Source of the DNA: Blastocystis sp. Blastoise
Lineage: Eukaryota; Protista; Bigyra: Opalinata
NCBI GenBank assembly: GCA_039096225.1
Contig: JBBPEB010000021.1
Coordinates: 558,001 to 622,000 of the forward strand
Direction: 5' to 3'
Length of the DNA stretch: 64,000 nt
The translations under genes were made by a program, and so were the position numbers. The notes beneath the pieces are model-generated. The model made no database searches and was not told where the DNA came from. It saw only the letters and a program-made list of their open reading frames with translations. Numbering within the stretch: the stretch's first letter is position 1; the number at the start of each line of letters is the position of its first letter. Shown here piece after piece: positions 1-48,617 of the stretch.

Positions 1-2169
1 GATTATTAGTAGATGATACAGAATATTATGATATTCTTGCAAATGAAGTAATAGATGCTACTCCTTGGCAATTAAGACAATTATTTGGTTTACTTTGTTC
101 TTATTATCCTATTACTGATCCATTATCTATTTGGAATACTTATAGGAATGATATGATAGATGATTTCTTTCATCAATATATAAATGAATATATAAGTATA
201 GATAGACAAGATGCATATGTATTAGATTCAGAAGATAATGAAGTGAATAGAATAATAGAAGAATATTGTATACCTAGAGCATTAAATCATATAAGAAGTG
301 TTATAGATACAAATAAACATAATGGAGGATATCAAAGTACTAATTTACCACAATTTGATAATAATACTAATATGATAGATTATGAATCTGAAGGAATTAA
401 TTTTGAAGAAGATCATAGAATAGCCGAAAGAAATATAAGTTTATTGAATGAAGGACAAAGAAGAGTATATGAATCAATAATGGAATCAGTGAATAATAAT
501 GAACCTCATAGAAATAATATGTTTTTTATAGATGGACCAGGAGGAACTGGAAAAACATTTCTTTATAATACAATAATTAAATCAATAAGAAATAATATAG
601 ATGATGTGATAGCAGTTGCATGGACAGGTATTGCAGCTACTTTATTATGTGGAGGAAAAACATCTCATTCACAATTTGGATTACCTTTTGAATTAAATGA
701 ATCTTCTTCTTCTTCTATTTCAAGAGGATCTCCAAGAGCAGAACAAATTAAGAAATGTAAAATAATAATATGGGATGAAGCTCCTATGGCTTCTAAATAT
801 GCTTTAAAAGTAGTTGATCGATTATTAAGATTCTTATATAATGATGAGATAGATATTCCATTTGCAGGTAAAACAATAGTATTAGGTGGAGATTTTAGAC
901 AATGTTTACCAGTAGTAGCTCATGGAAAAGAAGCTGATATTGTTCCTTTATGTATTAAATATTTAGATATTTGGAATGAATTTAATCAATTTCAATTGAC
1001 AGAAAATATGAGAGCAAATGCAAATGAAATAGAATTTAAAGAATTCTTATTGAAGATAGGAAATGGTGAGAGATGTAATAATGAATTAAGATTATTATCA
1101 AAAGATAAAGTACATATTCCAAGAGAATGCATTTGTGATGAGAATATAGGTGAAGAGATATTTCATGAATTTATTAATGATTCAAATACAGATATATATA
1201 GACAGAAATTAGCTTCAAATTGTATATTATGTGCAACAAATGAACAAGCATATTTAATTAATGAAAGAATTCAAAATATGATAAGATCAAGTTCTCATCA
1301 TTATTATAGTCATGATGAATTAGCAGAAGAAGTAGAAGATATAGATGAAAGAGATGCTTATAGTACAGAATATTTAAATAGTTTAATTCCTCAAGGATGT
1401 CCACCTCATGATTTAGAATTGAAAAGAGGTTCAGTTATTATGTTATTAAGAAATTTAGATATAAAGAGAGGATTATGTAATGGAACGAGATTAGTAGTAT
1501 TAGATACAAAACCAAATGTAATAAGAAGTCAATTATTAGTAAGAACTGATAATATGTTAGAAGGACAAGATATAGTATTGATTCCAAGAATTAAATTTAT
1601 AGTAGATGATAGTGATTTACCATGTAAGTTAAGTAGAAAACAATTTCCTGTCAGATTAGCTTTTGCTATGACTATTAATAAATCACAAGGTCAAACATTT
1701 CAAAATGTAGGTATTTATTTAGAAAGACCTGTATTTAGTCATGGTCAATTATATGTTGCTTTAAGTAGAGTACGTTCTTTTCACGGTATAAAAATGTTTA
1801 TAAAGAATGATAATATTAATCAAGGTCAATTAATCAGAAATAGTAATGAATGGTATACTAAAAATTGTGTATTTAATGGAGTATTATAATTTATTTTTGT
1901 TGTTGTATTTTGTTATATGTTTTTTTCGATTTTCTAATTTTTCTAATTTTTCTTATTGTTTATGAATACTTTTTGTTAATTTTCAATTTTAAATTGTATA
2001 TTTGTTTATTTTTATTTGTTAATAATTAATTCTTAAAATTTATATTGTTTAGTTTATAATTCTTTATCATTATCAAAAATAAATAAATAAATAACAAAGA
2101 ACAAGAAATAATTGACTGAAATAGACTTAATAGATACATAGCATCGGCGAAGCCGATGCCACCCGCTAG
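1..2169 (+). mobile_element. Helitron-1, 3' part (5' end outside window)
   Basis: Pif1-type helicase ORF followed by hairpin GCATCGGC-GAA-GCCGATGC (2141-2159), then CTAG (2166-2169) and T: a canonical Helitron 3' terminus. Confidence 0.93.
3..1889 (+). CDS. Helitron RepHel, C-terminal Pif1/SF1B helicase domain (5'-partial)
   Basis: Frame is open from base 3 (LLVDDTEYY..TPWQLRQLF). Motifs: IDGPGGTGKTFLY, IIWDEAPM, LGGDFRQCLPV, LCNGTRL, RKQFPVRLAFAMTINKSQGQT, FSHGQLYVALSRV. Confidence 0.95.
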   Translation, partial: LLVDDTEYYDILANEVIDATPWQLRQLFGLLCSYYPITDPLSIWNTYRNDMIDDFFHQYINEYISIDRQDAYVLDSEDNEVNRIIEEYCIPRALNHIRSVIDTNKHNGGYQSTNLPQFDNNTNMIDYESEGINFEEDHRIAERNISLLNEGQRRVYESIMESVNNNEPHRNNMFFIDGPGGTGKTFLYNTIIKSIRNNIDDVIAVAWTGIAATLLCGGKTSHSQFGLPFELNESSSSSISRGSPRAEQIKKCKIIIWDEAPMASKYALKVVDRLLRFLYNDEIDIPFAGKTIVLGGDFRQCLPVVAHGKEADIVPLCIKYLDIWNEFNQFQLTENMRANANEIEFKEFLLKIGNGERCNNELRLLSKDKVHIPRECICDENIGEEIFHEFINDSNTDIYRQKLASNCILCATNEQAYLINERIQNMIRSSSHHYYSHDELAEEVEDIDERDAYSTEYLNSLIPQGCPPHDLELKRGSVIMLLRNLDIKRGLCNGTRLVVLDTKPNVIRSQLLVRTDNMLEGQDIVLIPRIKFIVDDSDLPCKLSRKQFPVRLAFAMTINKSQGQTFQNVGIYLERPVFSHGQLYVALSRVRSFHGIKMFIKNDNINQGQLIRNSNEWYTKNCVFNGVL

Positions 2170-2170
2170 T

Positions 2171-2434
2171 TTAAATAACAATAACAGCAAAAATCTTAGT
2201 GATTTACAACTAAGTTATTGTAGAAATATGTTACTTTATATAGATGATCCTGTGATTCATCAACGTCTTGAAATGCTATTGGATAAACAATATATGAAGA
2301 ATGAGAATCAATATCAAGATGATAAAAATCTTATTCAACCCAATAATATGTTTATGCCAACTATGAAAAGTAATCAACAACAAAATCAATATCAAAATAA
2401 TAATAATAATCTATCTTTCTTACCTTTTAATTAA
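2171..2434 (+). pseudogene. Probable 3' remnant of a gene cut by the Helitron-1 insertion
   Basis: An 87-codon open frame starts right after the Helitron CTAG/T junction and ends tail-to-tail with the recombinase gene (66-nt gap). The ORF-track ATG (2156) lies inside the Helitron hairpin and is spurious. Confidence 0.45.
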
Positions 2435-2500: not shown

Positions 2501-3436
2501 TTATTCAATTAATTTTTTAAATAAATTATTATTTTCTAAAGATACATAAGAATTAATATGTGTATAATCATTATGACATAAAGCAGAAGCAGAATTTTCT
2601 ATATCTTGGAATGTATTGGTTGTAGTTGTAGCATATAATTTTCTTAATGCATTAATGGTTAATTTTGGATGGATTTGTTTTAAATGCTTATTCACAAACC
2701 AATCAAATGCTTTAGTAGTAAATCCAGTTCTTACAGAAGATTCAAATATAAATTTACGATTTGGATTTCTTTTTAAGAGTAATTCTAGATCTTCAATCAA
2801 TTCTTTTGGTGCATCTAATTGAATTGTAGAGTATTTACCAGCAGTTTTATAATCATTCAATAGAATAGAACCAGTGTGTTTCTCTTTATCATAAACAATA
2901 TAATTCTTATGAATAACTGGATCAATAGTATCTTCTGGAGTTAGAATGAATAATTGAGCATAATCAGCACGAGCAGGAGGAAGATAGGAGTAAAAATCTA
3001 ATATTAATCGTAATGGATTATAATTTTCTAATTTATCGTGATATTCATGTAAATATGGAGTCGTAATACCATCTTTAATAAGATCTTGAATCAAAGTACG
3101 TTTCTTATTATCCAGATATTTTTCATACATTGAATTGATAATCACATAAAATTCACACCATTTATTTAAAATACCTTCTTTATTTAATGAAGAAACATTA
3201 CGTATAATAAATAATATCAATTCACATAACGATTTCATTGGACTAATTTTGATTTTACGTTCATTTACCATATAATCCATGAATGAATAAGGATTCTTTA
3301 AGAATTCTGAGAACTTTTTAAATGGTAATGGGAAAATATATAAATTGAAATAATTGGTTAAACGTTTTTTCCAAATATCAGAATAATTTGAATTCTGTAT
3401 AACCAAAAGATACTTGTCATAATTTGTATTTTTCAT
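2501..3436 (-). CDS. Tyrosine recombinase/integrase, virophage/Polinton-like-virus style, intronless, 311 aa
   Basis: Catalytic pattern in the correct order: PPAR(A)DY (R), LNDYKTAGKY (K), INALRKLY (HxxR with H to N), ALCHN (H), THINSY (Y). First ATG is at 3436. Confidence 0.85.
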   Translation of the reverse strand: MKNTNYDKYLLVIQNSNYSDIWKKRLTNYFNLYIFPLPFKKFSEFLKNPYSFMDYMVNERKIKISPMKSLCELILFIIRNVSSLNKEGILNKWCEFYVIINSMYEKYLDNKKRTLIQDLIKDGITTPYLHEYHDKLENYNPLRLILDFYSYLPPARADYAQLFILTPEDTIDPVIHKNYIVYDKEKHTGSILLNDYKTAGKYSTIQLDAPKELIEDLELLLKRNPNRKFIFESSVRTGFTTKAFDWFVNKHLKQIHPKLTINALRKLYATTTTNTFQDIENSASALCHNDYTHINSYVSLENNNLFKKLIE

Positions 3437-3523
3437 TGATTTTCTCAAGTAGAATCTCTAAAACTTCTATTTTCAAAAGAATAATACATAAGAAAATCAA
3501 AATAAAATATCTAAGATTCTCAT

Positions 3524-3573
3524 GTTCTCGAATGTTCTAGAAGTTTCGAGAATGTTCTAGAATATTCTAGAAA
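3524..3573. promoter_or_regulatory. Array of 10 perfectly alternating nGAAn/nTTCn pentamers (heat-shock element consensus)
   Basis: TTC at 3525, 3535, 3545, 3555, 3565 and GAA at 3530, 3540, 3550, 3560, 3570, with variable spacer bases. Lies 88 nt upstream of the recombinase ATG. Confidence 0.7.
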
Positions 3574-4311
3574 ATTGATATACATGCCGCCACATAAAAC
3601 CACTGGAACACAATTAGTTTCCCCAGTTTCCCTATTATAATTGTGTTTTTGTGTTCCAAAATCCCTCATTTTTACAATTTTAAGCAATTTGATTGGACAA
3701 TTCACGATGACGCATCCTATTTCCATAACGGTTACCCTTGTTTCCAAAAGTCTCTCGTTATAATCGTGGTGGTGGGTACATCTTTTTACAAGACCACACC
3801 ACCACCAGCTTTTCTTTCACCCACTATAAATACATACCTTGATCACTTTACTCTTTTTATATAAATTTTTTTATGATTATCATGACTTTTTATATTATTT
3901 ATTGATCACTATACATACATTTTTATTTTTATATATTCCCGTGATTATTTTTATTATTTCTTTTTAGATAGAACCATCCATTTCATCTTTTCTCTATATA
4001 AAGGGAGGGTCGGGGTGTGTGTTTATTTAGCACATTCTGTGCTTCTTTTCGTATTTCTTTCTGTATTCCCGTGATTATTTTACTCACTTTACCAACGATG
4101 GAGTCATTTTCCATGAATATTCCCTGTAAAGGGGAGGGTTGGACTGTGTATTTTATTTCTTTTATGATTACTATGAGTTTCTCCTTGATCACTTTACGTT
4201 TCACGTTGGAATCGGAACACAAATAAATTAAAAATAAATAAACATGGGAAAAATAAATACACACACACACTACCCTACACTCCCATGGTTATTTTACTTC
4301 AGAAATGTTAT

Positions 4312-4430
4312 TAATTCTTCCGTCGAGAACAAAAAGGGGGATGTCTTCCCCGCTTATGGCTGCGCGCGTCGCGCAGACTCTATGCGGGGTTTGCATACCC
4401 CCTTCTGCAGTTCGAAGAACGGAAGAATTA
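4312..4430. other. ~120-nt GC-rich imperfect hairpin
   Basis: Nested arms: TAATTCTTCCGT 4312-4323 / 4419-4430; GAAC/GTTC; AAGGGGGATG / CATACCCCCTT; CCCCGC/GCGGGG; apex CTGCGCG-CGT-CGCGCAG 4360-4376. Confidence 0.9.
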
Positions 4431-5179
4431 TTAATATTTGCAGCGACAAATCTGAATTTGTGGTTTTTCGTCTCTTAGTAGATAGAAGCACATCCAACTA
4501 TTGTCGAAGTCGTGAATATCATTTTTTTTATTAATATCCTTAATTTAGTTCATGTAGCGTACGGTGTCTCACACACTTTCACTATTATTGACTTTGTTAT
4601 TAACTTTTATAAAATAAAAATAACATCATAAAATACGGAACACAATTCTGAAAATGACTGTTAAAGAAATTTTTCGAAAACTCTAAATTTCTGGCTAAAA
4701 AATGCAAAAAACCATTTTCGCACAAAATTTTAACCAAAATTATTGGATTATTTTTATTTTATCCAATATTTTTCATTTTTATAAAAACACTTATTTTTCG
4801 TTTTTCATTTTTTATTGTTTTCTTATTTTTCCTATATCACTTCACATACTCTATATTTATTTTTATAAAATTGACTTTTATTGACGGGTTAGTCTTATAA
4901 ATAGTTTTGACGGGTAAATTTGTTTATATTTACAACTTGACAACATATCAATACACACATCACTAACTATAAACTCTAAAATGGTTTCAGTTGTTATGAT
5001 ACTGACCTCAACTACTCTGAAACCACAATAATTCCTTTAAATAACAACAAAAGTCAAACTGATATCCGACACATTCCTTCTTTATAAACTTATTTGAGCT
5101 TTAATGTATTTATTTAACTCTGTATCCGTCATAAATATGTTTTATATTTTAATAATATGTTTTAATAAGAAAATATTTG

Positions 5180-6460
5180 ATAATAGAAATTTTGATGTTT
5201 TGATAGTATAGTTTGTTATTCGTCTTTCTCCTTGAGTTTTGGGTATTTTTTAAAAATAAAAGTATAATTATAATTAAGATAAGCTATTGCAGATACATAT
5301 TTTTTATTTCATCTAAATATTTAATATTGACTGAGAAACATTCATTTATATGAAAAACATAAAAATGAAAATTTTCAAAAAAGGGTATAGTTTGTTATTG
5401 TGATTTCTCAATCAATTCTTAATAAAATAAAAAAGTTAAAACATATTTAGAAACTAGACATGTCATAGCAGATACATGTTTTTCATTTTTTTAATTAATT
5501 GAAAACTCAGGTGACAAGAGTCAATAGTTGAACTCAATAAAAAATGACTTTCAAAAAATTTTCTTAAAAAGTTTTCATTTGTTTTTTGTTTATATTTTCA
5601 TCATTAACAATTTTATTTGACATTTGACTTTATATTTAAAAACTACATACCAAAATAAACATATTTTACAATTTTATTTTGTTTTTAAAAGACTTTAACA
5701 ACAGATCACCAGACAATGTTAACTTAATAAACTCTTAAAACGTTTTAATACGTGTTTAGAATCATTTATGGACACTGAATATGACTTATTTGAAAAAATT
5801 AAGACAACATGTTGAACTGATACTGACAATGTTTGCTTTAAAAAGTCAGTTATGAGTCTTTATGAGTTGTATATGTCATAAATAAGCTTAAAATAAATAA
5901 ATTTGTTTTTAATTGTCTTTAATTAGTGAAATAAGTCGTTTAAAAAGAAGAAAGCATTTTGGATACTATAGTTTATTTTGACAATTTCTCCATCAATATT
6001 AATTTAAATAAAATAAATAAATCTTATTTATAAACTAGACAACCTATAGTTTATATATTTATAAAAATATTATCAAAATATAAAATAACTTTTGAGATAA
6101 AAAATTATATATGCAAAACATAAAAAAATTAATTTTTGAAAAAAGGGTATACTTTATAACATTAATTTCTCAGTCAATATTTAATTATTATAAATAATTT
6201 TAGCAAATATATATAGAGAATAATATATATTAACGATATAAATTTTAACATTTAAAATTAATTAAGAAATGAGTTCAGTAGAGTCAATAGTATAACATGT
6301 TAAAAAACTGAAAATTGAAAAATCGTTTTTCTAAAAATTTTCCGAAAGTTGACAAATCAAATTCATATTTGACAAATAATTTTTATATATTTGATAACTA
6401 GACCTTATATGTATTGCATTTCTCAAAAAATTAGTCAAAAATAAGTTAGACGAGTGTATG
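5180..6460. repeat. Diverged ~762-bp tandem duplication with ~182-bp sub-repeats
   Basis: (G)TATAGTTT..TTTCTC blocks near 5203, 5384, 5964 and 6147; GAGTCAATAG near 5518 and 6281. Confidence 0.7.
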
Positions 6461-6559
6461 ATATATGCACATGTTGACTCATAATTTTGAAAAAAGTAGT
6501 TAAATATGTCCTAAACCACATATCAAAGCAATTCTATAAATATTATCACTTTATAATGA

Positions 6560-7300
6560 GTTTAAAGGGTAAAATAATTTTGAATTGTCTGTTTGACTGT
6601 CTTAAGTGAAGAGATTCAATACACTTTTTATAAAAATGAGTATTAGAGTGTTTAATGTTTATAATAATAAAAGAATTGTTTGAAATAAAGGTGGTTGTGT
6701 GTTTGACCAAAATGTTAAAATGAGTCTATTTTTCTAAAATGGTTACAATAAGTATATATTGAGTGTTTTTAGAGTGTTTCATATTAAAATCTACAATAAA
6801 TAAACATTTTAAGTTGTTTAAAAAATTATTTTTTTAGAATTACAATAGTTAAGTCAAGAGATTCAAGTCACTTTTTATAAAAATAATAAATAGACTTATT
6901 ATAGAATATAAAATATTAAAAATTAGTTTAATTAAACATGGTTGACTGTTTGATAGGAGTGTTAAAATGGGTAAAAAGATTTTAATTGTTTCTAAAACTG
7001 TATAATACGTTTTTATGTCACTAAATACAAAATTATTATTGTTTAAAGAATGTTTTTTGTCTTTCAAAAGAACTCATTTTTTTGTAATTGTGACTTTAAA
7101 CAAAAGAGATTCAAGTTATTTTTTATAAATTAAAATAACAAATTAAATATATGTGTATATGAATATAAAATTAGTTAAAATAAAAGTGAGTATATGTATT
7201 TAAAAACGTTTAAATCTTTTAGAGTTTTTTTATAATAACTTATTTGTTTTATAAACTATATTTTATGTATAATAGGTAAAGTTTCCAAAGTATTTAAATC
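6560..7300. repeat. Diverged ~248-bp tandem repeat (3 units), also present in Helitron-2
   Basis: GAGATTCAA core at 6611, 6858 and 7106, and again at 11509 and 11754, with shared downstream words (TAGACTTAT, ATGTGTATAT). Confidence 0.7.
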
Positions 7301-8080
7301 TATTTAGTTATGAAATGGAATGTAATTTTTGTTTTATATTTTAGTTTTTATTTCTTATTTCTAAAATGATTTTGATAACACTATAAAAATTAAATAAATT
7401 TGAATTAAGTAATTTAAAATAATGAAAAGATAATTTCTCTAAAAATAATCTCTTTTACTTATAACGAATAAATTCTATTAATGATAAATATTAAAATAAG
7501 ACTCTAATTTTTTTGTTTATTATATAAAGTAATAAATATCTTTTAATTATTAAGAGTACTTTTGTATTAATAATTCAAACTAAAATAAGTATAATAAAAG
7601 AAAAATTATAATATTTATCAAATAATATCAAGATATGATTACTATTTATATAATTAAACATTTATTAATTGAGAAAAGCTGTATAATAAAATTTCTAAAA
7701 TATTTATATAATAGTATATATAAAAGGAAAGGATAAAATATAAAAAAACAAATAGATATCAAAATTATAATATTTTAAAAATAAAACAAAACAATATATG
7801 AAAAGAATAAAAAAGAATATATAATATTTTTTTAGACAAGAGAATAAGCTATTTCTCACAATAATAATTATATAGACTAATTCAAATAAAACATAAATAT
7901 TTAAAGGTAGGGTATAAGTGATAATAATATGTTTTAAAAGAAAAAGTATTTTATAATCATATTGATATTATTTAAAATACTAAATATTTATAAAACTAAA
8001 TGAATTGATAAAATACATAGAAAGTTATAAATGAAATAACAAAGAAAAGTGAATTAATATTGAAAACTAAAAACTAAATA

Positions 8081-8236
8081 GAAATAGAAATAGAAATAGA
8101 AATAGAAATAGAAATAGAAATAGAAATAGAAATAGAAATAGAAATAGAAATAGAAATAGAAATAGAAATAGAAATAGAAATAGAAATAGAAATAGAAATA
8201 GAAATAGAAATAGAAATAGAAATAGAAATAGAAATA
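8081..8236 (+). repeat. (GAAATA)26 microsatellite
   Basis: Perfect hexamer run. Confidence 0.95.
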
Positions 8237-11200
8237 AGATCAAAAATAAAACGCAAGAGTTAATTAATTATCATTGATAAACAATAAATATATATAATCA
8301 ATAATAAAAATGGCTAAAAAGAATATTAAAAAAAAAGGAAATAATACTCAAAAACATATAGAATGTTAAGTAAGAATTATCAATATGTATGAATTAAATT
8401 ATTTAAAATACTAAATTGAAAATTAAGATTAGAAGATAACAATTAAAAGCAATTGAAATAATATTTTATAAAATATGAAATAGTTTTAATCCTAAAAAAA
8501 AATAAAAACAGAAATGAATAACAAAAACATAAGAATAAATATTCATTTTTTAAAATTCAATGTAAGATATAACAATTGAGAGATAATAATTATCTAAACT
8601 CAAGCGTAGGCTGGCGTAGCCAGTCGTGAAACGCTTGTAGCATCTAAATGACGTTCCATTTCTATATTTTATAGAATCATAACTAGTAAATTCATTTTCG
8701 TAAATATGCTTAAACCATATTAAAATCCTCTGGCATAGTTCTCTGTTATACATAAGTCTTTCCCATATATCATTAGAAGCCATATATAGTTCTTTAAAGA
8801 ATTCATTATTAATGAGTTTATTGAAATCATCATCATTGTTTACTAATAGTATATAAATTATTGATAATAATATTTCCCTCGAAGATTTGGGTTTTTCACT
8901 AGGATTTTCAAAAGTATAAGATCCACAATTTATATCGTAGCAATCATATATATCATCACCTGTAGACATTCCATTCTTAATTTCTTTACTAAATAAAGTA
9001 TATTCAATAACTTCTCTTGAAATCATTTTCAACAATACATGTGATCCAGGACTACGTTTGGTACTACATATTCTACCAGAAATTCCAAAAAAGCGTTCAT
9101 TGGTATAAGTATATTGAAATGATGGAACACATATATATAGTATTGATGTTAATAGATGAATCAAAATATGATCCTGAGTAGTAATTAATTCTTTAGGCAT
9201 ACACTTTTCTATTTTATATAATGTAAGATATATTCTTTTCTTAAATTCTAATAAGCAGTTAAGATCATATGGAATATTTATCGCCATAACATTATTAAGA
9301 ATAGAAAATAAGTTCTCTAGAAACACTATTAACTTCGAGTCATGATATGTATAATCATGCATTAGTGGAATAATATACTTCGAGAAAGCAATAAACTTAT
9401 TTTTACCGTTTAAGTTTGAGAAGAATGAAGGATTTAATATATCACAAAAGCCATTTTTATTAAATGATTTAAAGGAGTGAATGGAGTTTAATCTGACTTT
9501 TAATATATTAATATTATTCTCATTTAGTGAAATACAATTTGTACCAGAATTCTCATTATTAAGAATGTGAGAAGCTGTTTGTGACAAATAGTTTGTCGAA
9601 TTATTGAATAGATAAGTATAATATTCCTTAGATAAATTAATATTAAGATGCAACGAATCAGGATTCAATCCATATACCCTACTAATTTTAATACACGGAT
9701 AAAGTTCTATTACATTCTTCTTTTTATCTACTTCACTAATATCAACATAATGCAATATATCTTTTTCATAATTTTTCTTTAATGAATTTTCAACAATATG
9801 TAAATCACCATTTCTTGTAGAATTAGATAAATAGATAGGATTAGATTGTTTCTTAGTATATTTATTTTTCAATTTATTTAATCTAGGTTGATGAATGTCT
9901 TTAGAGGTACAGTTTGAAGATTTTTTTGTATACAAGGAAATACAATTATAATGATTATTATTATTACTATTTAAGGATTCATGATAAAAACTAACTGGTG
10001 TTGACTTATACTGAATCTGAAGACAAGAAATAGGAATTGAATCAATGGTTATATTTTTTTCGTTTATATGAAGTTCTGATTCTGTATTTATTATCTTATA
10101 GTGCCTTTTTATTATTTCATCTAAGAATTGAATACCACTATGAAGCATAGATAGACTTCGTTCTATAGATATGGAGCACCAATTACAAAAACTGTTAGAA
10201 GCTGAGGAAGAACCACCTATTACCGATCCTCCCTTATAATCAAAAGTATAATTAATTGGTAGGCATTGAATTTTAATTGATGAATCATTGTATTGTATTG
10301 TGTAACCATTAATAAGTATCTCAAATTCTTCATATAGAAATTGAATTAATGTGTGTAGATAGGAGGGAGGGCAGAATGTTATAGGTATACAGAATTGAGA
10401 TTCTGAAGATTTATTAGACTTTAAATTTAATATTCTAATTCCAACTGAGTTTAATAATACATGAGAACCTTGTATACTTCTATTATATACTGAGAATTCA
10501 TCAGTAAATATTCCACAAAATAATATAATATCTGCTTTAACCTTTTCTATAATATCTTTATATTGTTTCATGGCACAGCATAAATGAATATCATTGACAT
10601 ATTTATATTGACTTTTATAGTAATTTCTATCATTATCATTTGGAATACCATTATATATATAATGACCAATCAAACGGTCATCTTCAAAGAGATGATGAGT
10701 ATTAATTATCTCTATAACTTCATTATATTTGTATACAGAACAAACATTTTGATAAACACTACATTTTATCATGTTAGTAATTCTTGGAATTAAAGGACTA
10801 TACAACACTCTCTCCATTTCTTCTAAATATAATCATTACTATATATATGAGAATAGGCAAAAAAATTCCCATTGGTCAGTTTTTGGAAAATGCATTTGAT
10901 TGGCTACTATATACTCAAGTTTGTACCCACAACTCCTCTAAACTTACGGGAAGTTAACTTTTGGTTGAAACACAGTTCAATAGGATATAACGTGTAGTTG
11001 TGCACCGTATATTTGGTTAAGCGATATTATTTATAATTAAAAAGATATTAATAAAAAAATAGAAAACATGATTTTTGAGTCGTTTTTGATTGGCTCTTTG
11101 GGGTGACCCCGATAAAAATTGTTGACCAGACAATTGAAAAATAAACATGGGGTAAACTTGATTTTTTCTCAATCCCACAATATACGTTATCCGTGTTTAT

Positions 11201-12225
11201 TCTTTATATTTATCTATTTTTTAATACTTTTTCATATTGAACACGTGAGGCCTTAACGGTCAAATTTAGATTGTCAATTTGACATGATATTCTGATTCAG
11301 GAGGTCAAAAAACCTAGGTGTACCAATTTTGAGCTCCTGAGGACGATTTTTGAGTGATCCATATTTTCTTCGATCTTCTTATAATGGACTAATATTGTAG
11401 TATTGTAATCAATAGGTCCTCAAACTACTATGGTTAAAACAAAGTCTTAAAATAACGAGTTTAAAAGTGACAATTTTGAAAAATGTGAATTAAGTGGTCT
11501 TAGAGTGAGAGATTCAATATAATGACTTTTATTTAATAAACTAGACTTATAACTCTATACTATATTAAAAGGAGAGTCAAAATTATGAAGGTCAAAGTGT
11601 ATCGGCAAAATGTAAAGTATGTCTTAAAATGTTTAAAGTGTTAGCTGTTGTTTTTACTCATCCAAGTCAAGTCTACTCTTAAAATATTAGCTTTAACTAA
11701 TAAGTTAAAGGTTGTCAATTTGTCAAAATGTTTTAAACACTCTCTTAAACAAAGAGATTCAAGAAGTTGACTTTCATTTTATACATAGCATGTGTATATA
11801 AATACTTTCTCAAAAGAGCTTTGGAAAATATTGTGGATGAGTGTTTTGTCAAATGGTAAAGTTATATAAAGAGTGAATTGTTTCCATTCCTTTTTGTTTA
11901 AATCAATGTTTCGTGTTTACTCTATAAAAATAACTTTTTAATACTGAGTTTAAAGTTTAAAAGTCAACATGTGTGTTTGGTTTGTTTACTTTTAATTATT
12001 AAAATTGAGTTTAAATACATAAATTATGTCATACACGTCTATACTGATTGATTCAAACAGTTTTGAGATGACTTAGTTGTTTCAGTTAAAATGGATTTGT
12101 TCTCATTGTGACTGTTGTTGAGAAGAGGAAGTCTCAAAAAACTATAAACAGTTAGATATATGTATATAATGTCAAAATTTAAAAGGTATAATCTAAAAGA
12201 GATAAAAATAAGTTTAAAAAAAGAG

Positions 12226-12277
<52 letters not shown>

Positions 12278-12309
12278 GTAAAAAATATTAAAAAACAAGA
12301 AAAATAAGA

Positions 12310-12376
12310 CTTCATGTCAGGAATTGAACCTGAAAACAATCTATAATGATTGCTTCTCTCCTTCTAGAGCATAAAG
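12310..12376 (-). ncRNA. tRNA-like cloverleaf (pseudo-tRNA) inside Helitron-2
   Basis: Minus strand: acceptor CTTTATG/CATGAAG, D-stem CTCT/AGAG, CAATC-ATTATA-GATTG arm, T-arm TCAGG-TTCAATT-CCTGA. Spacing is non-standard and the anticodon loop is 6 nt. Confidence 0.5.
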
Positions 12377-12423
12377 GGAGTTTAAAGAGTAATAATAATA
12401 ATTAAATATATATATATATATAA

Positions 12424-12990
12424 TAAGAAGGAAATGAAGAGGAAGAAAGAAGTAGGAAGAAGAAGAAGGAAGAATTAAGGATGAAGAAGAAGGAAGAAGG
12501 AAGAATCAAGGATAAGGAAGAAGGAAGAAAGAAGAAGGAGGAAGAAGAAAGAAGGAAGCAGGAAGAATGATGAATGATGAAGCAGGAAGAAGTAGGAAGA
12601 AGAAAGAAGGATGAGGAAGAATGAAGAATCAAGGTGAAGAAGAATGAAGTTGGAAGAATAAGGAAGACGGAAGAAGGAAGAAGAATGAAGTTGGAAGAAT
12701 AAGGAAGAAGGAAGAAGTAAAATGAAGAAGGAAGAAGAAAGAAAGAATAAGAAGACTATTAAACCTATATACAATAAAAACATATAAACATATAAATAAA
12801 TAAATAATATAAATATGATAAATAAATAATATAAATATAATAAATAAATATAATAAATAAATAAATAAATAATATAAAATTAATAAATAAAATAAAATAA
12901 ATGAATAAATATAATAAATAAATATAATAAATAAATAAATAAATAAATAAACATATAAATAATAAAAATAATAAATAAAATATAAATATA
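12424..12990. repeat. Purine-rich degenerate (GAA)n tract followed by a (TAAA)n tract
   Basis: Low-complexity sequence; the overlapping ORF-track calls are artefacts. Confidence 0.85.
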
Positions 12991-13661
12991 TACCTATAAA
13001 TTAATCTGGAACCACAGATTAAAAAAGAAAGACATAAAAAAACGAAAACCACAACACATCAACAACATTTTCTTTCCTATAGAACAAAAAAAATAATAAT
13101 CCATTGAATAAATTATATATAAAGAAAAAATAAATAAAATACACAAATAAAATAATAAGTAAAACAGATGAATAGACAAATGAAAAAGAAAATATTATAA
13201 AAAATATATATATTTATATACCTGACAATAAATAAGCCATGTAGTACAACCAGGACCACTTCAAGAAGCTTCTATCACCACAACCAAGACAAATACAAAA
13301 GAATCCTATAGAAAAGTGTATTATTTTAAATAAATAAATTAATATATACAAATAAATATAAAAATAATAACTATACAACATCAAATTAATTAATAAAACA
13401 TACCCAGACAATCAATACAAACAAATAATTAAAAAATATAAGAAACTATAGTTTTTGGGTACCCAAAATGTTTTTAATAAAAAATGACCCAATTATCAGT
13501 TTAGCAATAAAAATTATTAAAATTCAAGGTTAATTATGATTCCTATTATTTTTAAAGGTACATATTTTAAATGTAGACCCTTTTTTTACAAAAGTTGAAA
13601 TCAAAATAAGATTTTGTATTCTCCATAAAAATACTTATTTTATAATTAGTTATTAAATAAG

Positions 13662-16600
13662 ATGCCTAAGAAGACTCGGATGTCGTCCAGGCGGAGGTCT
13701 TTGAAACAAAAGACCTATGTATCCCAGAAACGGTCAAGTATGTATTGTATTTATTTTTTTATTATACATATATAGGTTCTTCTACTCAGATGGATGCAAG
13801 CATGGATATCATTGATGGTGATGGTGCTTATCAATATGGTCTTGAAGGTATATATTTATACATTTCTTTTTGTTTTATTATTTTATATTATCTTAGATTC
13901 TTCTATGTCCATGGTGTCCTATTCTGATGATGGTGTAAGGTTATCGTGTGGTATTGAAGGTATGTTGGCATTCATTTGTTTTTATTTTTATATTTTTATT
14001 TATCTATAGGTTCTTCTATTGTTGTGGATTCTGTTGCTGGAGCTATTGATGATGATATACACTCCACTAATGGTCTTGAAGGTATGTTGTCAATCATTTA
14101 TTTTATTTTTTTTTATTTTTATTTATCTATAGGTTCTTATACTCATGATGATGTTGTTGCTGATGCTATTGATGGTGGTGTTAACTCGACTCATGGTCTT
14201 CAAGGTATATAATCATTCATTTATTTATTTATTTATTTTTAATTATTTCTTTTATTTCCTATTTATATGTTATTATAGGTTCTTCTGTTGCTATGAATGT
14301 TAGTGCTGATGTTATTCATAATGAAGGTATATATAATATATTTTCTTTTTCTTCTTTTTGATTTATACTTTTATTTTATAAATATATATAGGTCCTTCTA
14401 TTAATGGTAGTGATGCTAAAGGTATATAGATATTTATTCTTTTCTTCTTTTTTAATTTATTTTTAATTTATTACTCTTTTATTTATATATAGGTTCTTTA
14501 ACTCAGTTAAGACCTGGCTTTTCTTCAGCTTCTTCTTTAGAAGGTATATATATATATATTTATTATTTATATAAATATATATTATTATTATTATCTCTTT
14601 CATTGATAATATACAGGTGTGTCTTCTAATGTGAGAGAATATCATCCTGTTGGTGCTGATGTTACAAATATAACTATATCTAAAGGTATATATATATTAC
14701 ATATATTTATTTTATCTTATTTTAAATATATATATCTATGTCTTTTGTCTCTATAGGTGTTAGTGTGAGTGATTCTTCAGTTGCTGAAGGTATATATATA
14801 TTACATATATTTATTATATATTTCTTTTAATATATTATATCTATGTCTTTTGTCTCTATAGGTGTTGATGATAATAGTTCTTCAATGACTAAGGGTATAT
14901 ATATATTACATATATTTATTATAATATCTCTTATTATATATATATCTATGTCTTTTGTCTCTATAGATGTTAGTATTAATAATTCTTTAATTGCTGAAGG
15001 TATATATATATTACATATATTTATTATATACTTCTCTTATTATATATATATCTATGTCTTTTGTCTCTATAGGTACTAATAATGTGATGGGTATGTTAAA
15101 AATAATCTTTTAGTTTTCTTTTCTTTTGCTTATTATTATTTTGTTATTATTTTCTTTTCACAGATAATAGCTTTCTATTATCTGCTTTCTTATAGTGTCT
15201 ATTTATTTATTTAACTACTTCGTTTAGCTGTGCTACTTAGTATGTTAATATTTAATAGAATACTTTCTTTTGTTTTCTTTTTGTTTTGTTAAAATTGATT
15301 TATTTAATTTATATTGTGTCGAAAAAAAATGGTAAGGTTGTCGACTATTAAGATAATTCTTGAATTACTTAATATTGAATAGTGTGGAGTCTTTAAATAT
15401 TTGTATTAAATTATATTTAAAACATCTATTGATCGCCTGTGTGACTCATACTATTGTTGACTATTGTTCGCCTCTAATTCGATATAGCCTAACCGATGTT
15501 ATATACTATCGATGCTTGAGCTCTTATTAAGTGTTGAGTTTCTGCACTTACTCGCATTGTACATAGATATAAACTGGGTAGTTAGTGATATGTTTTAGAT
15601 ATGTTGTAACAAAGCACAATAGTTATAGAAGTCCGTTATGAGCGGATCTTAAGGATTGTTTAATAAATAATACAATATTAAATATCTATACTTATTTAAT
15701 ATTAGTTTTCATTAATTATAATATTATCTTTCATTATGTTTAATATTGAAGATAATTATTAATTAATAAAGTGTTTACTTTATGAATTGATAAATATTTC
15801 ATAGATACTCTATGATATATTTATATTAATTAGTAATTACTTCATTAACTATAATGAGACTTAATACACTTAATAAAATACTTATCATATCATTAACTTT
15901 ACCATAAATTATAATTAATATCTAACTATTAATATATATAGGTTCCAATAAGGATAAAATAAATAATAATGATTTATCTAAATCATTTGGTTTTAACTCA
16001 AAACCTTTAGCTTTGTTTTCGATTTTTAATATACAAAATAATATTCCTTTACAAAACATTCAAAACAATAATTCAAATAACAATATTGATATTGATATAG
16101 ATAATAGTTATTCACAAATAAATAATAATAATTCTATATTAAATAATGGTTCAAACCTACTTAATCAAATGAATCCAGTTAATCAATCAATTAATAACAT
16201 ATCTATTGTTCAAAGTCAAATTAATAATAATAATCAATCTATTCCTATATCAACTACTATTATACAACCTACAGAAAATAATACTTCTGTTTCTAATAAT
16301 AATAATGATTCTATTAATACTTCTTCACACTCTTTACCTGTTGTTACTACTATTCCAACTAATGTAAATATATCTAACAATAATAATTCTACAATCATTA
16401 ATGATAATACAAATAATTCAAGAAATAACACTAATACTAATAATAATGAAACAATAATACATAGAAATAATAGATCTATTAATTCCATCATGAATAGTTA
16501 TTTAACTATTCCTGATTTAAGTCCTATTCTTCCTCCTTTAAGTATTCTAACAAATATTCCTCATATTAATTTAAATAATGATAATGAATCAGAAATTATA

Positions 16601-19600
16601 ACAACAATACCTAATAGTAGTAGTAGTAGTAGTTCAAGTGATAGTAGTAGTAATAGTAGTAGTAGTAGTAGTAGTAATTTTTCTGATAATGATTCTGATT
16701 CTGATTATATTGATCCTTTTCCTGATATTAATAGTAATACTCAAAATAATGATGAAATACCAGTTGTAAGAACTATTAGAAGACCTATAACAGATAATAG
16801 TATGTTTTTTTATTATTTAAATATATTTATTTAATACTTTTTTATAGTTGAAGAAGACATAACTATTCATCCTATTATTAATAGAGGAAGAAGAAGAGCT
16901 TTAGATATTTGTATGCTATTTATATTTTATAATCCTTTATAAATAATTAAATAATAAATTATTTTTATAGATAATCAACAAAGATTATTATATCCTGGAT
17001 TACATAATTGTATTGCTTCTATTCAAAGAAGTATTTATATATATTTAATATTGATTTTATATTATTTTATATAGATTCTCATGGTGATTTTGTATTAAAT
17101 GAAGCATTGAATACTTATAAAGCTAATTATTTAGGTGATTTTAATGTTCATTGTGAATATTGTCATGCTAAACATTTTGAATTAGAGAAAGGAATGAATG
17201 ATAAGTTTTATACTTGCTGTGGTAGTGGTAAAGTAGTTCTTCCTGAGCTTCCTGATCTTCCTAATACTATTCGTTCTTTATTACAAAGAGATAATCCAGA
17301 TTCAAGAGAATTTATTAATAATATTATTCGATATAATAATTCTGTTGCTTTAGCTTCTTTAGCTGGAAATAATACTTCTGATGATGATTTAAGAAATTCT
17401 TCTGGACCTTTACTATTTAAATGTGGAGGTAATATATATCATACTTTTAAGAGTGCTTTAGATTTTGATGTGAATGATCCTACAAGACATCCTATATTCA
17501 ATCAATATTATATGATAGATGGAGATGAAGCTACTCATATGAGAAGTATGAATCGATATTTTTGTGATTTAAAACCAAATATTTTACAAATATTAGATAG
17601 TACAATAAGAGAATATCATCCATTAGCTCAAATATATAATTCACTTCGAGAAAGAGTAGATGAAGTAATAGAAGAGAATAGTCAAATGAATAGAAGTAAT
17701 ATTAATTTATTAATAGAATTTAAGAAACAAAGAAGAGAAGTACCTGATATAAGAAGATATAATACTCCTCAAGTAGATGAAGTAGCAGTAATATATCAAT
17801 ATAGAGAAGGAGGAGTAATGCCAGAAAGAAGTTATTGTTGTTTTCCTAGAAGTGGTATGGAAATAGTAGCTACTAATAGTAATAATGAACAGAATCGTTA
17901 TACTTCAGGTCAATATATAGTAATGAAGAATACTAATTCTTATATAGATTGTATGGTTTATCCAGTTATGTTTCCAACTGGAAGACAAGGTTGGTATCCA
18001 GATTTATTATCATTGAATCGTTCTAATCAAATAACTATTACTATGTTAGAATATTATAATTATATGCTTCAAATGAAAGATCCACCTTATGATAATTATT
18101 TATTAAAATATAAGAAATTAACTTTACAATATATTACTGATAATTATATACGAGTAGAACAAAATAGAATTAATTATATACGAAATAATCAAAATAAATT
18201 AAGAGCTTCAACTTATCAGAATATAAATAATATGTTAGAAGAGAGAGGAGATCAAATAAATGAGAATGATAGAAATATAGATAGAATAGGTAAAGCTATT
18301 ATATTACCTTCTTCTTTTGTTGGTAGTCCAAGAAATTTACAACAGAAATATATGGATGCTATGAGTGTAGTTCGAGAATATGGTAAACCTGATTTATTTA
18401 TTACATTTACTTGCAATCCAGATTGGCTAGAAATAAAGAATAATATTCCAGAAGGTTATACTGTTAATGAATTTCCAGATTTAGTTTCAAGAGTGTTTCA
18501 TTTAAAGTTGAAACAATTACTTTCTGATATAAAGGATAAGAATATATTTGGTACTGTAGAAGCTTTATTATATTCAGTGGAATTCCAAAAGAGAGGTTTA
18601 CCACATTCTCATATATTAATTATTTTAGATACGAATTCTAAATATAGAACAGAAGATGAAGTAGATAGTATAATAAGTGCAGAGATTCCTGATAAAGAAT
18701 CAACTCCTCTTCTTTATGAATTAGTTAAGAAACATATGATTCATGGTCCATGTGGTCCTGATTATGATACGAATTGTGTTTGTATTGATAGATCAACAGG
18801 TAAATGTAGTAAGAGATTTCCAAAAGAATATATAGAGCAAACTAATTGTCATTTAAATTCTTATCCTTTATATCAAAGAAGAAATATTCCTGATAGAACT
18901 ATTACTCTTATTCGTAGTCATAATACTTATACTATTGATAATCGTTGGGTAGTTCCTTATAATCCTTATTTATTATTGAAATATCAAGCTCATATTAATG
19001 TAGAAGTCTGTTGTAATATTCAAAGTACTAAATATATATATAAATATGCATTAAAAGGAAATGATTCTGTGATAGCTCAATTACGAAGAGTGAATGATAA
19101 TGGAATAGTAGACGAAACTCAAGCTTATTTAGATTGTCGATATGTTTCTCCTCCTGAAGCTTCTTATCGTTTGAATTGTTTTGAAATTACTTATAATTCT
19201 GTTTCAATTAATAGATTACCTATTCATTTACCTGATGATCCATATATATTATTTCGAGAAGGACATGAAGAAGAAGCATTAAGAAATAGTTTAGAGAAAG
19301 GTACTAAATTAACAAAATACTTTGATTTAGAGAAAGAAGTTCAGAATCAAAGAAAGATATATACTTATTATTATATAGAGAAGAAGCATGGTATTCGTAA
19401 TATGAATAATGTAGAAGAAGAAAGAGAATTGATTCAAGTTCGTTTAGAAGAGATAAATAGAATAAATAGTTATGAAGTAGATGATGATAATATATCAGAA
19501 GAATTATTGAAAATATTAGATGAGAAATATCCTATTTATGCTTATCATGAAATACCAAAATATTATGTATGGAAATCGAATACAAATACTTGGAATAGAC

Positions 19601-21687
19601 GTCAGAGAGATATAAAAGCTTTAGGAAGAATGTATTATGTGAATCCAAAAGATAAAGAACGATATGCTTTGAGATTATTATTATTGAATACGAAAGGAGC
19701 TGATAGCTTTGATTCTTTGAAGATAGTAAAAGGATTGAATAGTAATGAACCTTATAGAACCTTTAGTGAAGCAGCTATAGCAAGAGGATTATTGAATAAT
19801 GAGAGAGAAGTATTTGATTCATTTTCAGAAGCTATTGTTTTTGCTACTCCATGTCAATTGAGACAATTATTTATTACTTATATTTCAGAATCATTATTAA
19901 CAAATGTAAAAGAGTTTTGGATTCGATTTAAATCATTTCTTAGTGAAGATTATAAACATTCAATGCATAATAATGAAATAGATTATATAAATACTCCTTT
20001 AGCTCAAGATTTAGATTCATCAAGTGTTATAGAAGATGATACTAATACTGTTCTTCAAGATTATGAAATACGTACTTTACAAGATATAAAAGAGATGATG
20101 ATAAGTATAGGAGTGAATTATAATGATTTAGGATTACCTCAAGTAGAAGAACAACATCATTATAATGATTATAATTATAATCCTACTTTAGAATTACAAG
20201 AAGCTAATAGAGTAATAGAATTATTAAATGAAGAACAAAGAAATGCATTTGATAGAGTAATTCATTCAATAGAAAGTAGTAGAATAGAAGATAAGTTATG
20301 TTTCTTTTTAGATGGTCCAGGTGGAAGTGGAAAGACTTTCTTATATAATAGTTTATTAAGTTATTTACGTGGACATAATAAGAATGTATTACCTGTAGCT
20401 TCAACAGGAATTGCTTCTACTTTATTACCAGGTGGTAGAACAGCTCATAAACAATTTGGTATTCCTTTGAATGTTGATCCTGATTCTACTTCAAATATAG
20501 ATTTAGCTAGAGATAGAAGAAAAGTAGAAGAAATAAGAATAGCTGATTTAATAATATGGGATGAAGCTCCTATGATGAAAGGTGATTGTTTTATGGTAGT
20601 ACATAGATTATTATGTGATATAATGAATACAGAATTAGATATTCCTTTTGGTGGTAAAACAGTAGTATTAGGAGGAGATTTCAGACAATGTTTACCAGTT
20701 ATAAGAAAAGGAACTCAAGCTCAGATTGTTAGTTCTTCTATAAAGTTTTGTTCCTTATGGAATTCTATCAAAAATAATGTTATTCATTTATCAAGAAATA
20801 TGAGAGCTTTAGAAGGAGCAGATGATTTTAGACAATGGTTATTACAAGTAGGAGATGGTGTTCTTTCTAATAATTATACTATTAGTCATCATTTAGATAT
20901 AGATTATATTCCTATTCCTCCTCAATGTATTGTAAATGATGATTTATGTGTTACTGTATTTGGACATCGAATCAATACTTCTCTTGATTCTGATATCAAA
21001 CGATTAGCTTCTTCTGTTATATTAGCTTCTACTAATGATTGTGTTGGTACTTTAAATGATTTCATTGTAGATAATCTTCTTTCTGGAACTACTACTCCTT
21101 ATATCTCTTCTGATTCTATTCTTGATTCTGAAACAGATGATCCAGAATCAAATTATCCTATCGAGTTTATCAATTCTCAAACACCTTCTGGAATGCCTCC
21201 TCATATATTAAATTTAAAAATAGGTTGTATCATTATGCTTTTAAGAAATCTTAATCCTTCTAAAGGATTATGTAATGGTACTAGACTTATAGTTACTCGA
21301 TTAGGATCAAATAATATTACTGCTACTATTTTAAATCCTCCTCCTTCTCTTACTATTGATGAACGTACTGTTATTATTCCAAGAATCATCTGTAATTCAA
21401 ATCCTGAAGATCTTCCTATTATTATATCCAGAAGACAATTTCCTATTCGTTTAGCCTTTGCAATGACTATCAACAAATCTCAAGGACAAACATTTGAAAG
21501 AGTTGGTGTTTATTTAGATCGTCCTGTCTTCTCTCATGGTCAACTCTATGTTGCTTTCAGTCGTGCTCGATCTTTCAACGCTCTTTTTATTAAGGTAGTT
21601 GATAGTGTCTCTCAAGGTAAGATGATTAGTAGTAGTAATGAAATATTTACTAAGAACGTGGTCTTCAGGTCTACTTTAAATAATTAA
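13662..21687 (+). CDS. Helitron RepHel, predicted long spliced form (17 exons, 2087 aa)
   Basis: Exon 1 13662-13737, twelve micro-exons 13776-15090, then 15942-16799, 16848-16910, 16971-17030 and 17075-21687. All introns are GT-AG and phase 1; the total of 6264 nt is in frame. The micro-exon-to-15942 join is inferred. Confidence 0.65.
13776..15090 (+). repeat. Tandem array of 12 symmetric phase-1 micro-exons
   Basis: Exon lengths are 72, 63, 72, 72, 48, 30, 51, 69, 33, 33, 33 and 18 nt. Many start AG/GTTCTTCT or AG/GTGT and most end (G/A/C)AAG/GTAT. The last units repeat every 105-106 nt with near-identical introns. Confidence 0.88.
15318..15646 (+). ncRNA. Candidate multi-stem structured RNA element upstream of the RepHel exons
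   Basis: At least seven nested complementary segments, several needing G-U pairs on the + strand (listed in findings). Confidence 0.45.
17075..21687 (+). CDS. RepHel core exon: Zn-finger, HUH Rep (Y2) and Pif1 helicase
   Basis: CEYCHAKHF..CCGSGKV; GKPDLFITFTCNPDW; VEFQKRGLPHSHILI; YIYKYALKG; DGPGGSGKT; WDEAPM; GDFRQCLPV; AFAMTINKSQGQT; HGQLYVAFSR. Confidence 0.97.
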
Positions 21688-21988
21688 ATATTTTCTTTTC
21701 TCTTTTTTTCTTTTGTTTCTTTTGTTTTATTTGTTTTATATTGTTTTATTTGTTTTTTATTATTTATTTATATTTAACTTTTCAAATTTTAACTTTTTAT
21801 TTGTTCTAAAAATGTTTATAATAAATTTTTACTCTTTAATTTTTTACTTTTTATTTGTTTATAAAATGTTTATAATAATAAGCAAGGTTGTTTTGTTAAC
21901 TATTGTTTAATACATAATTTTAAAACCAAACTGCACAACGCAGCCGCGGCGCGTCGCCGTTAGGCGGTGCGCCAGCGGCGTTACCCTA

Positions 21989-22369
<381 letters not shown>

Positions 22370-22762
22370 TTTTATATACCTTTCTTATGAACACTATCAC
22401 AATAAATACATTTCATACTATCATTTATATTTCTTTGAAATGAAAATCCATATATAGCTGTGTTTTGTTTACACACATATAAATACGTTGGAATAAAAAA
22501 TCTATTTGGTATATCATGATATAAAGAACGGATATAATCTTGAGTATTACGAATCGGTAGTTCTATTGAATAATCATTATTAAATCTGTTCATAAAGGAG
22601 CGTAATGTTTCTATAAATACACCAAGATCAGCAGACGAAGCATTTGTTTTCACCATGTAGTTAAAAATGGAAACTTTAATAAATGTATCATCACTATCAT
22701 TACTGAGATCATTAAAATATAATTCCTTTTGAGAGTTCTAAGCATTATATAATATAGAAATT

Positions 22763-23096: not shown

Positions 23097-23912
23097 TACA
23101 CAACGAGAAATAATGTGTAAAATAATTGACTTGAGCAAAATTCGTGGTGAATAGCCGTAATATATTTTCTTGAATTGTTTTATATCTTCCTTTATTTCCT
23201 CCACGTCAGACAACTCAATTTGAGAATTATTTATTTCATTGATTTCTTCTTCATCATAATCGAAACTTGAATCAATTTGATAATCATTATTAAAATCATA
23301 ATCAGTAGGAAAAGTGGTTGAAACATCTTTAGAAGCATCATTATTTGTATTTAAAGAATTTTGGGAATAATTTAGACCATTATCGCAGCAAACATCACAA
23401 TTTTTATTACATATGTAGACTTCACTTTCATGCAATGGCTCTGTGTAAACAATTTGGTTGTCAATATAATGTTTTTCAATAGATTTGCTAGTAGAACCAT
23501 CTTCAATTTCTGTTAATAAAAGATCTATTTAAAACAATAAAAGTTAAATAAGTTTCTTATTTAGAAAATTACCATTATTTGCACATTTTCCAGAATCAGT
23601 AATATTTTTTGAATTTTGTTCAATATCTTTACAGTTCTTGTTCATGTCTTCTACAAAATTCTTGTTGGCATATGTTTTAGGATGCTTACATACAAAAACT
23701 AAAATGATTAAGCATTGCTAGAAAAATAAAATATATAAATACACTTCTTGGGTGTTTTTCTTTGTCGTATTCGACCAGACATGATTAAATAAGTTATAAT
23801 TACTTATTGATAAGCAAATAATAGTTTGTTTAAAAGATTTTTAAAAAGTCTCTATTTATGGGAATTTATTTTAATTATTTGATAAGAAATTTATTGGTAA
23901 ATTTACGCTATA

Positions 23913-26759: not shown

Positions 26760-29094
<2,335 letters not shown>

Positions 29095-29250
29095 ACTCTT
29101 AATGTTCAAATGTACTTTTAATCAAATTACAAAAATGAATGAAAATAACAGAAATTTTTTACCACGAAGAAAATCATTTCTAAAGGCAAATTTCATTCAT
29201 TGTTCTTGTTTTTCTGTTCACTTTTTATTTTTTCATTTATATATATAATT

Positions 29251-38954: not shown

Positions 38955-48617
<9,663 letters not shown>

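Follow-up and report, generated by a model that had tools for sequence, protein, structure and literature searches.

A virus-type tyrosine recombinase, a heat-shock element array and a hairpin at what is probably one end of an integrative element in Blastocystis sp. Blastoise

The question raised by the locus

What kind of mobile DNA brings together a tyrosine recombinase, an array of heat-shock elements (HSEs), repeated motifs and a hairpin at the broken end of a transposase gene? The question arises from a 64-kb stretch of AT-rich eukaryotic DNA (hereafter, the window). A preliminary description proposed two answers: the module is either the end of an integrative element that inserted into a CACTA gene, or it belongs to a composite CACTA element and supplies its resolvase and res sites. 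It placed the module in less than 2 kb. Its components were confirmed, but these 1.9 kb appear to be only one end of a longer insertion.

We lean towards the reading that the locus is one end of a multicopy element of Polinton-like virus (PLV) or virophage origin, lying in a CACTA-like gene, with an HSF-induced recombinase and crossover at the base of the hairpin. This reading is drawn from one end of one copy.

The recombinase and its family

The recombinase gene (2501..3436, minus strand, ATG at 3436) is intronless, as first described, and encodes 311 aa in a single open frame. The catalytic set R156-K197-R265-H288-Y297 is intact and includes N262-x-x-R265, so that the R-K-NxxR-H-Y pattern originally reported holds. 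The histidine of the HxxR motif is absent; where N262 stands here, the family has T in 72, N in 44 and S in 19 of 145 aligned members (hits shorter than 240 aa were excluded). P154, R156, K197 and R265 are invariant in all 145, while H288 is kept in 142 and Y297 in 143. The motifs PPARADY (153-159) and NDYKT (194-198), together with homology to a viral family, bear out the PPxRxDY/NxYKT signature that had suggested virophages and PLVs.

Searches of the protein against Pfam and PHROGs gave only sub-threshold integrase matches. With HMMER, a full scan yielded 308 relatives (E<=0.001), and a 123-member profile matches solved integrases (E 2.3e-5), with PF00589 matched by 24 of the 123 members. 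Whether the protein would model as a tyrosine recombinase had been set as a check, which it passed: a structure model built from a deep alignment has pLDDT 96.6 (an earlier model from a shallow alignment had 51) and superposes on Cre with Z 13.0 (rmsd 4.1, 271 residues aligned) and on XerH with Z 12.9. In Foldseek, Cre, XerA and lambda Int head the list (best E 1.6e-3). Topoisomerase IB equals Cre and XerH on the catalytic domain alone (Z 12.9, 170 residues), which, like the missing HxxR histidine, we count against our preferred reading. The predicted fold has both the core-binding and the catalytic domain of the tyrosine recombinase superfamily.

The best viral structural match is a protein of Aureococcus anophagefferens virus (E 4e-11), and the Atlas clusters are 100% viral, most commonly Preplasmiviricota. 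The recombinase is of the virophage/PLV (OLV11-like) type, where the label OLV11 is taken from the available portion of PMC4642659 and not from an alignment to OLV11. According to the same partial source, OLV11-like recombinases occur in PLVs, Organic Lake virophages, PgVV and Aureococcus anophagefferens virus, whose protein there is possibly a different one from our structural match. No close relatives were found in IMG/VR, GTDB genomes, phages or plasmids, and in JGI metagenomes relatives are limited to one short distant contig. We retrieved 46 IMG/VR loci with two distant recombinase subclades and scanned 68 ORFs from 10 of these loci; a major capsid protein of virophage type is encoded in four and an A32 ATPase in one, while the remaining five have neither.

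Cryptons are likewise eukaryotic DNA elements moved by a tyrosine recombinase; they have 4-6-bp direct repeats or none, and the word 'hairpin' does not occur in the text of PMC3212892 available to us. The present recombinase clusters with viral enzymes and may be distinct from theirs. It does not match DUF3504, GCR1_C or DUF3435, and none of the 123 aligned members has a Crypton-type Pfam match.

As a separate observation, three giant-virus contigs (L003, L004 and L006) carry a related recombinase beside or near a phosphoesterase gene of 1300-1450 aa. The phosphoesterase of L004 is SbcCD/Mre11-Rad50-like by Pfam, and this contig is an inverted duplication of the recombinase-phosphoesterase pair.

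Interruption of a transposase gene

The neighboring gene encodes a CACTA-like transposase, with a weak DUF4218 match. One full-length paralog, P0193 (1102 aa), can be aligned with four pieces of the window. The last of them is a stretch of 30 codons at 4523-4434 (minus strand), 73% identical to residues 928-957 of P0193; the main piece lies at 8637..10823 (minus strand), and there are earlier exons at 22381-22737 and 23109-23513. For the paralog's further 145 residues, the window holds no credible match (best E 1.5). Because the paralog extends so far past 4434, the TAA at 4433-4431 is best understood as a product of the junction, and the module as an insertion. The preliminary description thus correctly had the transposase frame stop at this TAA, but the stop appears premature, made by an element/target junction at 4432..4434 (±1-2 nt), and not the natural end. 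Most likely, therefore, the module is inserted in the transposase gene, with a body that would extend left past a Helitron (1..2169). With one copy seen, it is also possible that the transposase tail was lost by deletion.

These observations also bear on the second of the original proposals, a Tec-like composite in which recombinase and repeats form the resolvase/res module of a CACTA transposon. Transposase and recombinase are indeed adjacent in the window, and in Tec1/2 a tyrosine recombinase occurs alongside a DDE transposase (PMC3212892, in the portion available). However, the transposase is 145 aa short at the module, leaving no intact DDE transposase beside the recombinase. Moreover, for the three long paralogs of the transposase that are annotated, the nearest listed recombinase is 32 or more accession numbers away; these numbers follow the order of locus tags, and the survey covered untruncated copies. 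Given the broken frame and the distant paralogs, the composite is largely refuted, and we regard it as highly improbable. The first proposal, of an integrative element's end, fared better, as the recombinase is multicopy (see below) and transposase homology stops at the hairpin.

Copies of the recombinase

Single-copy versus multicopy status had been named as a check on mobility. The closest database relatives of the recombinase are annotated proteins of Blastocystis sp. Blastoise itself, and the gene proved to be multicopy: the assembly has 10 near-identical sequences, at most 5 of 311 residues apart and with all catalytic residues intact. The cluster comprises at least 16 listed accessions, in addition to the window's own sequence, and three pairs share contigs; copy number and context are here inferred from protein accessions. 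Being multicopy with near-identical copies, the recombinase was probably mobile recently.

Two further families in the same assembly, at 41% and 31% identity, have 3 and 1 proteins (members P0027, P0185, P0186 and P0028). A single clade (support 0.989) unites them with the window's recombinase and with Logan/ENA proteins. The Logan/ENA proteins of this clade were found on many contigs, e.g., 89 for P0175. Among relatives of 40-42% identity, the largest contigs recur at about 16.25 kb (three proteins) and at 23.7-24.0 kb (five proteins). These recurring sizes fit discrete PLV-sized units; they could also reflect repeated assembly breakpoints.

Whether the element is PLV-sized with capsid genes or a capsid-less derivative seems to us about evenly balanced. 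Against a complete virus, the InterPro annotation of 8 Blastocystis proteomes contains not one A32 ATPase, versus 60 in Proteromonas. This is a weak test, since Cafeteria, in which endogenous virophages are known, also scores 0. Protein-primed PolB is annotated only in ST4 among the 8 proteomes. For 10 other Blastocystis assemblies, Table S1 of PMC10120064, in the part available, gives no capsid count.

Domain counts could also suggest a retroelement, as integrase-like domains number 36, reverse-transcriptase domains 20 and adenine-methylase domains 7 in the proteome of one Blastocystis from a tortoise. The locus would then be a DIRS/Ngaro-like element with a swapped-in viral recombinase, and the inner hairpin arm an internal complementary region. 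Heat-shock promoters would not be foreign to such an element, since Dictyostelium DIRS-1 carries them. Against this, the recombinase is the outermost gene and is directed inward, towards a convergent gene, the visible 2.3 kb contain no reverse transcriptase or RNase H, and the recombinase belongs to the virophage/PLV family. A retroelement is accordingly improbable.

Repeats and hairpin at the probable end of the element

Between the recombinase gene and the hairpin, the repeated motifs originally noticed were recovered. This region (3837..4297, plus strand) contains the 15-mer CCNTGATYAYTTTAC at 3837, 4069, 4183 and 4283 with 0-1 mismatch and at 3939 with 2 mismatches, as well as an imperfect direct repeat of about 100 bp (3928-4028/4058-4158) whose score of 74 compares with a shuffle maximum of 52. 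At 0-1 mismatch, the 15-mer is confined within the window to 3837-4297. It is important to consider that the consensus was derived from these same sites; independent evidence consists only of the exact repeats, i.e., the 15-mer at 3837 and 4183 and an 18-mer at 3934 and 4064, and of the 100-bp repeat. We regard the subterminal repeats as candidate protein-binding sites. A similar motif with 2 mismatches (11136-11150 and 4231-4247), which recurs on the minus strand at 11150, may be due to chance.

The imperfect hairpin, first estimated at about 120 nt, is a palindrome of 137 nt (4303..4439), of which 4303-4432 are element DNA and 4433-4439 transposase DNA. It folds at -39.1 kcal/mol (z -7.14; 0 of 200 shuffles), and is the best 130-nt fold in the window (-36.4, versus -26.7 for the runner-up). 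Rfam gave chance-level matches only for this region, and the hairpin pattern has no match in IMG/VR. The hairpin had been described as starting directly after the TAA, which is true of a perfect 12-bp arm, but the stem as a whole crosses the TAA and continues to 4439. It thereby reaches 7 bp into transposase codons, and 6 of these 7 positions are identical to the inner arm, a match found at 0.4-0.6% of background positions. That the stem runs into transposase DNA hints at crossover by the recombinase at the stem's base. Tyrosine recombinases usually exchange strands over 6-8 bp (PMC3212892, in the portion available), compared with 7 here. However, this match was seen only once, in DNA rich in A and T, and was picked out in retrospect, which we count against our preferred reading.

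Could the hairpin instead be a separate miniature element or a chance neighbor, with the true end of the recombinase element elsewhere? The locus is a nest of independent insertions, and 12-bp inverted arms with such spacing are common in viral DNA (24 of 47 loci). Yet the final 15-mer repeat stops 5 nt short of the hairpin, which itself ends at the break in the transposase, and on the inner side no target duplication can be seen. We give this alternative little credence. A role of the recombinase as a telomere resolvase is a further possibility, although TelA ranks low in Foldseek and the arms of the palindrome are only 69% alike.

An array of heat-shock elements

The array of 10 pentamers reported upstream of the gene is perfect and unique in the window. 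It lies at 3524..3573, 89 nt upstream of the recombinase ATG, and its alternating nTTCn/nGAAn units form the only run of more than three in the 64 kb. By chance, about 4e-12 such arrays would be expected, and none appeared in 100 shuffles. An HSE is recognized by three or more alternating nGAAn units near a promoter, a number exceeded by the ten found here. All seven deviations from the 10-mer consensus fall at free 'n' positions (p ~0.0016). A neutral minisatellite origin was considered for the array and is disfavored.

Each of 8 Blastocystis proteomes has 2-3 HSF domains (PMC12129017 Table S5, in the portion available). It is likely that the recombinase is switched on by the host heat-shock system. 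No array of four or more units occurs in the 47 recombinase loci retrieved (46 of them viral), so HSEs are not a trait of the family. Farther upstream of the gene are a CCAAT-like motif (3692-3696, minus strand) and a TGACGCA motif (3708-3714), both read directly from the sequence, which we take to be possible promoter elements of host type.

Proposed mechanism of integration

In our preferred reading, i.e., a virus-derived element ending at the hairpin, host HSF would bind the array under stress, and RNA polymerase II would transcribe the recombinase inward from the element's end. In the free element, the palindrome would be folded into a duplex, whether as a closed hairpin end or as a folded single strand. 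To this stem the recombinase would bind, perhaps with the aid of the subterminal 15-mers. Strand exchange would then take place with a site in the chromosome that is AT-rich and similar to the 7-bp segment of the stem, and the insertion would be completed by replication or repair. The Helitron would have inserted later, into the element's next gene.

The layout has precedents, as integrases beside element ends and palindromes at the ends are described for related elements (PMC4642659, PMC11296320, PMC13236599, bioRxiv 10.64898/2026.07.28.741278, each in the portion available). The literature also suggests another route. The element would be excised in the form of a double-stranded circle, and its integration would be an ordinary attP x attB recombination that needs only a few bases in common; the palindrome would then be a replication primer, an origin or an accessory structure. 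A circular donor is the default assumption for PLV recombinases (PMC4642659), Phaeovirus EVEs, of which one end bears an inverted repeat and the other imperfect direct repeats, integrate through 2-5 nt of homology (PMC13236599), and terminal palindromes of Halocafeteria virophages and PLVs have been proposed to prime replication (bioRxiv 10.64898/2026.07.28.741278), all according to the available text of these sources. The circle alone leaves the inner arm's match to 7 target bases unexplained, unless the element's other end starts likewise. We consider the circular route the main alternative and a serious possibility, if on balance an unlikely one. Our full proposal, namely an HSF-controlled integrase combined with single-strand exchange at a folded terminal hairpin in an undescribed virus-derived family of Blastocystis, is more doubtful and is offered only tentatively.

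Comparison with known elements

Several components are already known singly: the enzyme family, the layout with an integrase at the end, end palindromes and transposons that bear HSEs. PLVs and virophages with OLV11-like recombinases share with this locus the recombinase family and the position of the integrase next to an element end (PMC4642659, PMC12220804, PMC11296320, each in part), as well as the multicopy endogenous state in a protist, and relatives of the present recombinase lie on 16-24 kb contigs. Such elements span 15-40 kb, often with terminal inverted repeats, whereas one end is visible here, and in this visible part there is neither a terminal inverted repeat nor a gene for a capsid protein, ATPase or replicase. 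The phrase 'heat shock element' does not occur in the available text of the virophage and Polinton papers examined.

Virophages and PLVs of Halocafeteria seosinensis, whose host also belongs to the Bigyra, carry a palindrome right at the terminus once integrated (bioRxiv 10.64898/2026.07.28.741278, in the portion available). There, the palindromes (52 nt in subtype 5) lie in terminal inverted repeats beside target-site duplications and accompany particular RVE integrases. In Blastocystis, by contrast, the palindrome is 137 nt long, contains mismatches, neighbors a tyrosine recombinase and extends into target DNA. Phaeovirus elements of Ectocarpus (PMC13236599, in part) resemble the locus in a recombinase near the end, short target homology, and inverted and direct end repeats. 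They too are activated depending on temperature, by cold, and have genomes of about 350-400 kb and a CC core.

Caenorhabditis Helitrons carry HSEs (PMC6927752), and ONSEN and Macrostomum LTR elements are further HSE-driven transposons, according to the partial texts at hand. These are Helitrons and LTR retrotransposons, whereas here the array lies directly upstream of a viral-type integrase.

An imperfect palindrome as a candidate folded recombination site is a feature shared with integron attC and CTX-phage attP. In those systems, an imperfect palindrome of roughly 60-150 nt acts as the folded site. They are bacterial and use other recombinases, and no R/L boxes or dif-like site were identified here.

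Our searches of the open literature brought up neither this Blastocystis element nor any PLV-type integrase with an HSE array. The main text of the Blastocystis genome paper does not mention recombinases or integrases, and a literature search for Blastocystis and tyrosine recombinase matched a single paper, whose available text describes a PolB/rve virus. How OLV11-like PLV recombinases integrate DNA is assumed rather than shown in the literature examined, as far as its available text goes. The question can be tested directly at this locus, as its junction is nearly base-exact, a site is proposed, and the protist, which can be cultured, has many copies that are almost identical. If the HSE array works, the element would be mobilized by host stress, without a helper giant virus as trigger, and in a gut protist of cold-blooded hosts it could link genome change to temperature. 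If the folded-hairpin reading is true as well, the element would provide a eukaryotic counterpart of integron/CTX-type integration together with prophage-like stress induction. Recombinases that need only a short target may also be of use as tools.

The surrounding nest of insertions

The Helitron at 1..2169 (plus strand) is represented by its 3' part, with a PIF1 helicase, a terminal hairpin and CTAG at 2166-2169. It appears to be nested in the recombinase element and to conceal the remainder of it. An adjoining convergent ORF (3' part at 2170..2434, plus strand; 87 aa with a Q/N-rich tail) would lie inside the element and have been severed by this Helitron; no homolog was found in Pfam, PHROGs or protein searches, one of which covered longer proteins only. 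In one sequencing run (X1), two contigs start at 2170 with 17 unaligned bases, as Helitron-free copies would. Contigs of this run also span 2571-2927 and 2958-3251 in the recombinase gene. Because the type of the run is a guess, we draw no conclusion on expression, and the lack of coverage of the hairpin region there is not evidence.

The transposase gene is likewise split at 4524-8636 by a 4.1-kb AT-rich insertion without long ORFs, located in a T run and with a GC-rich hairpin near 8600-8635; this may be a non-autonomous Helentron/Helitron2-like element. An 11.5-kb intron of the same gene (10825-22379) has GT/AG ends that rejoin KK-EEM as in a paralog (P0192). It contains a second Helitron, with a Rep-helicase ORF at 17008-21687 and CTAG near 21986-21989, as well as further repeat-like DNA at 10860-11340. 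Upstream of that ORF, at 13660-15100 on the plus strand, are very short repeated exons with near-identical introns. A multi-exon gene at 39192-48214, which from its translation we take to resemble Prp8, a LAS1-like ORF (28519-29121) and an alpha-galactosidase-like ORF (37635-38654) are ordinary host genes beside the transposon nest.
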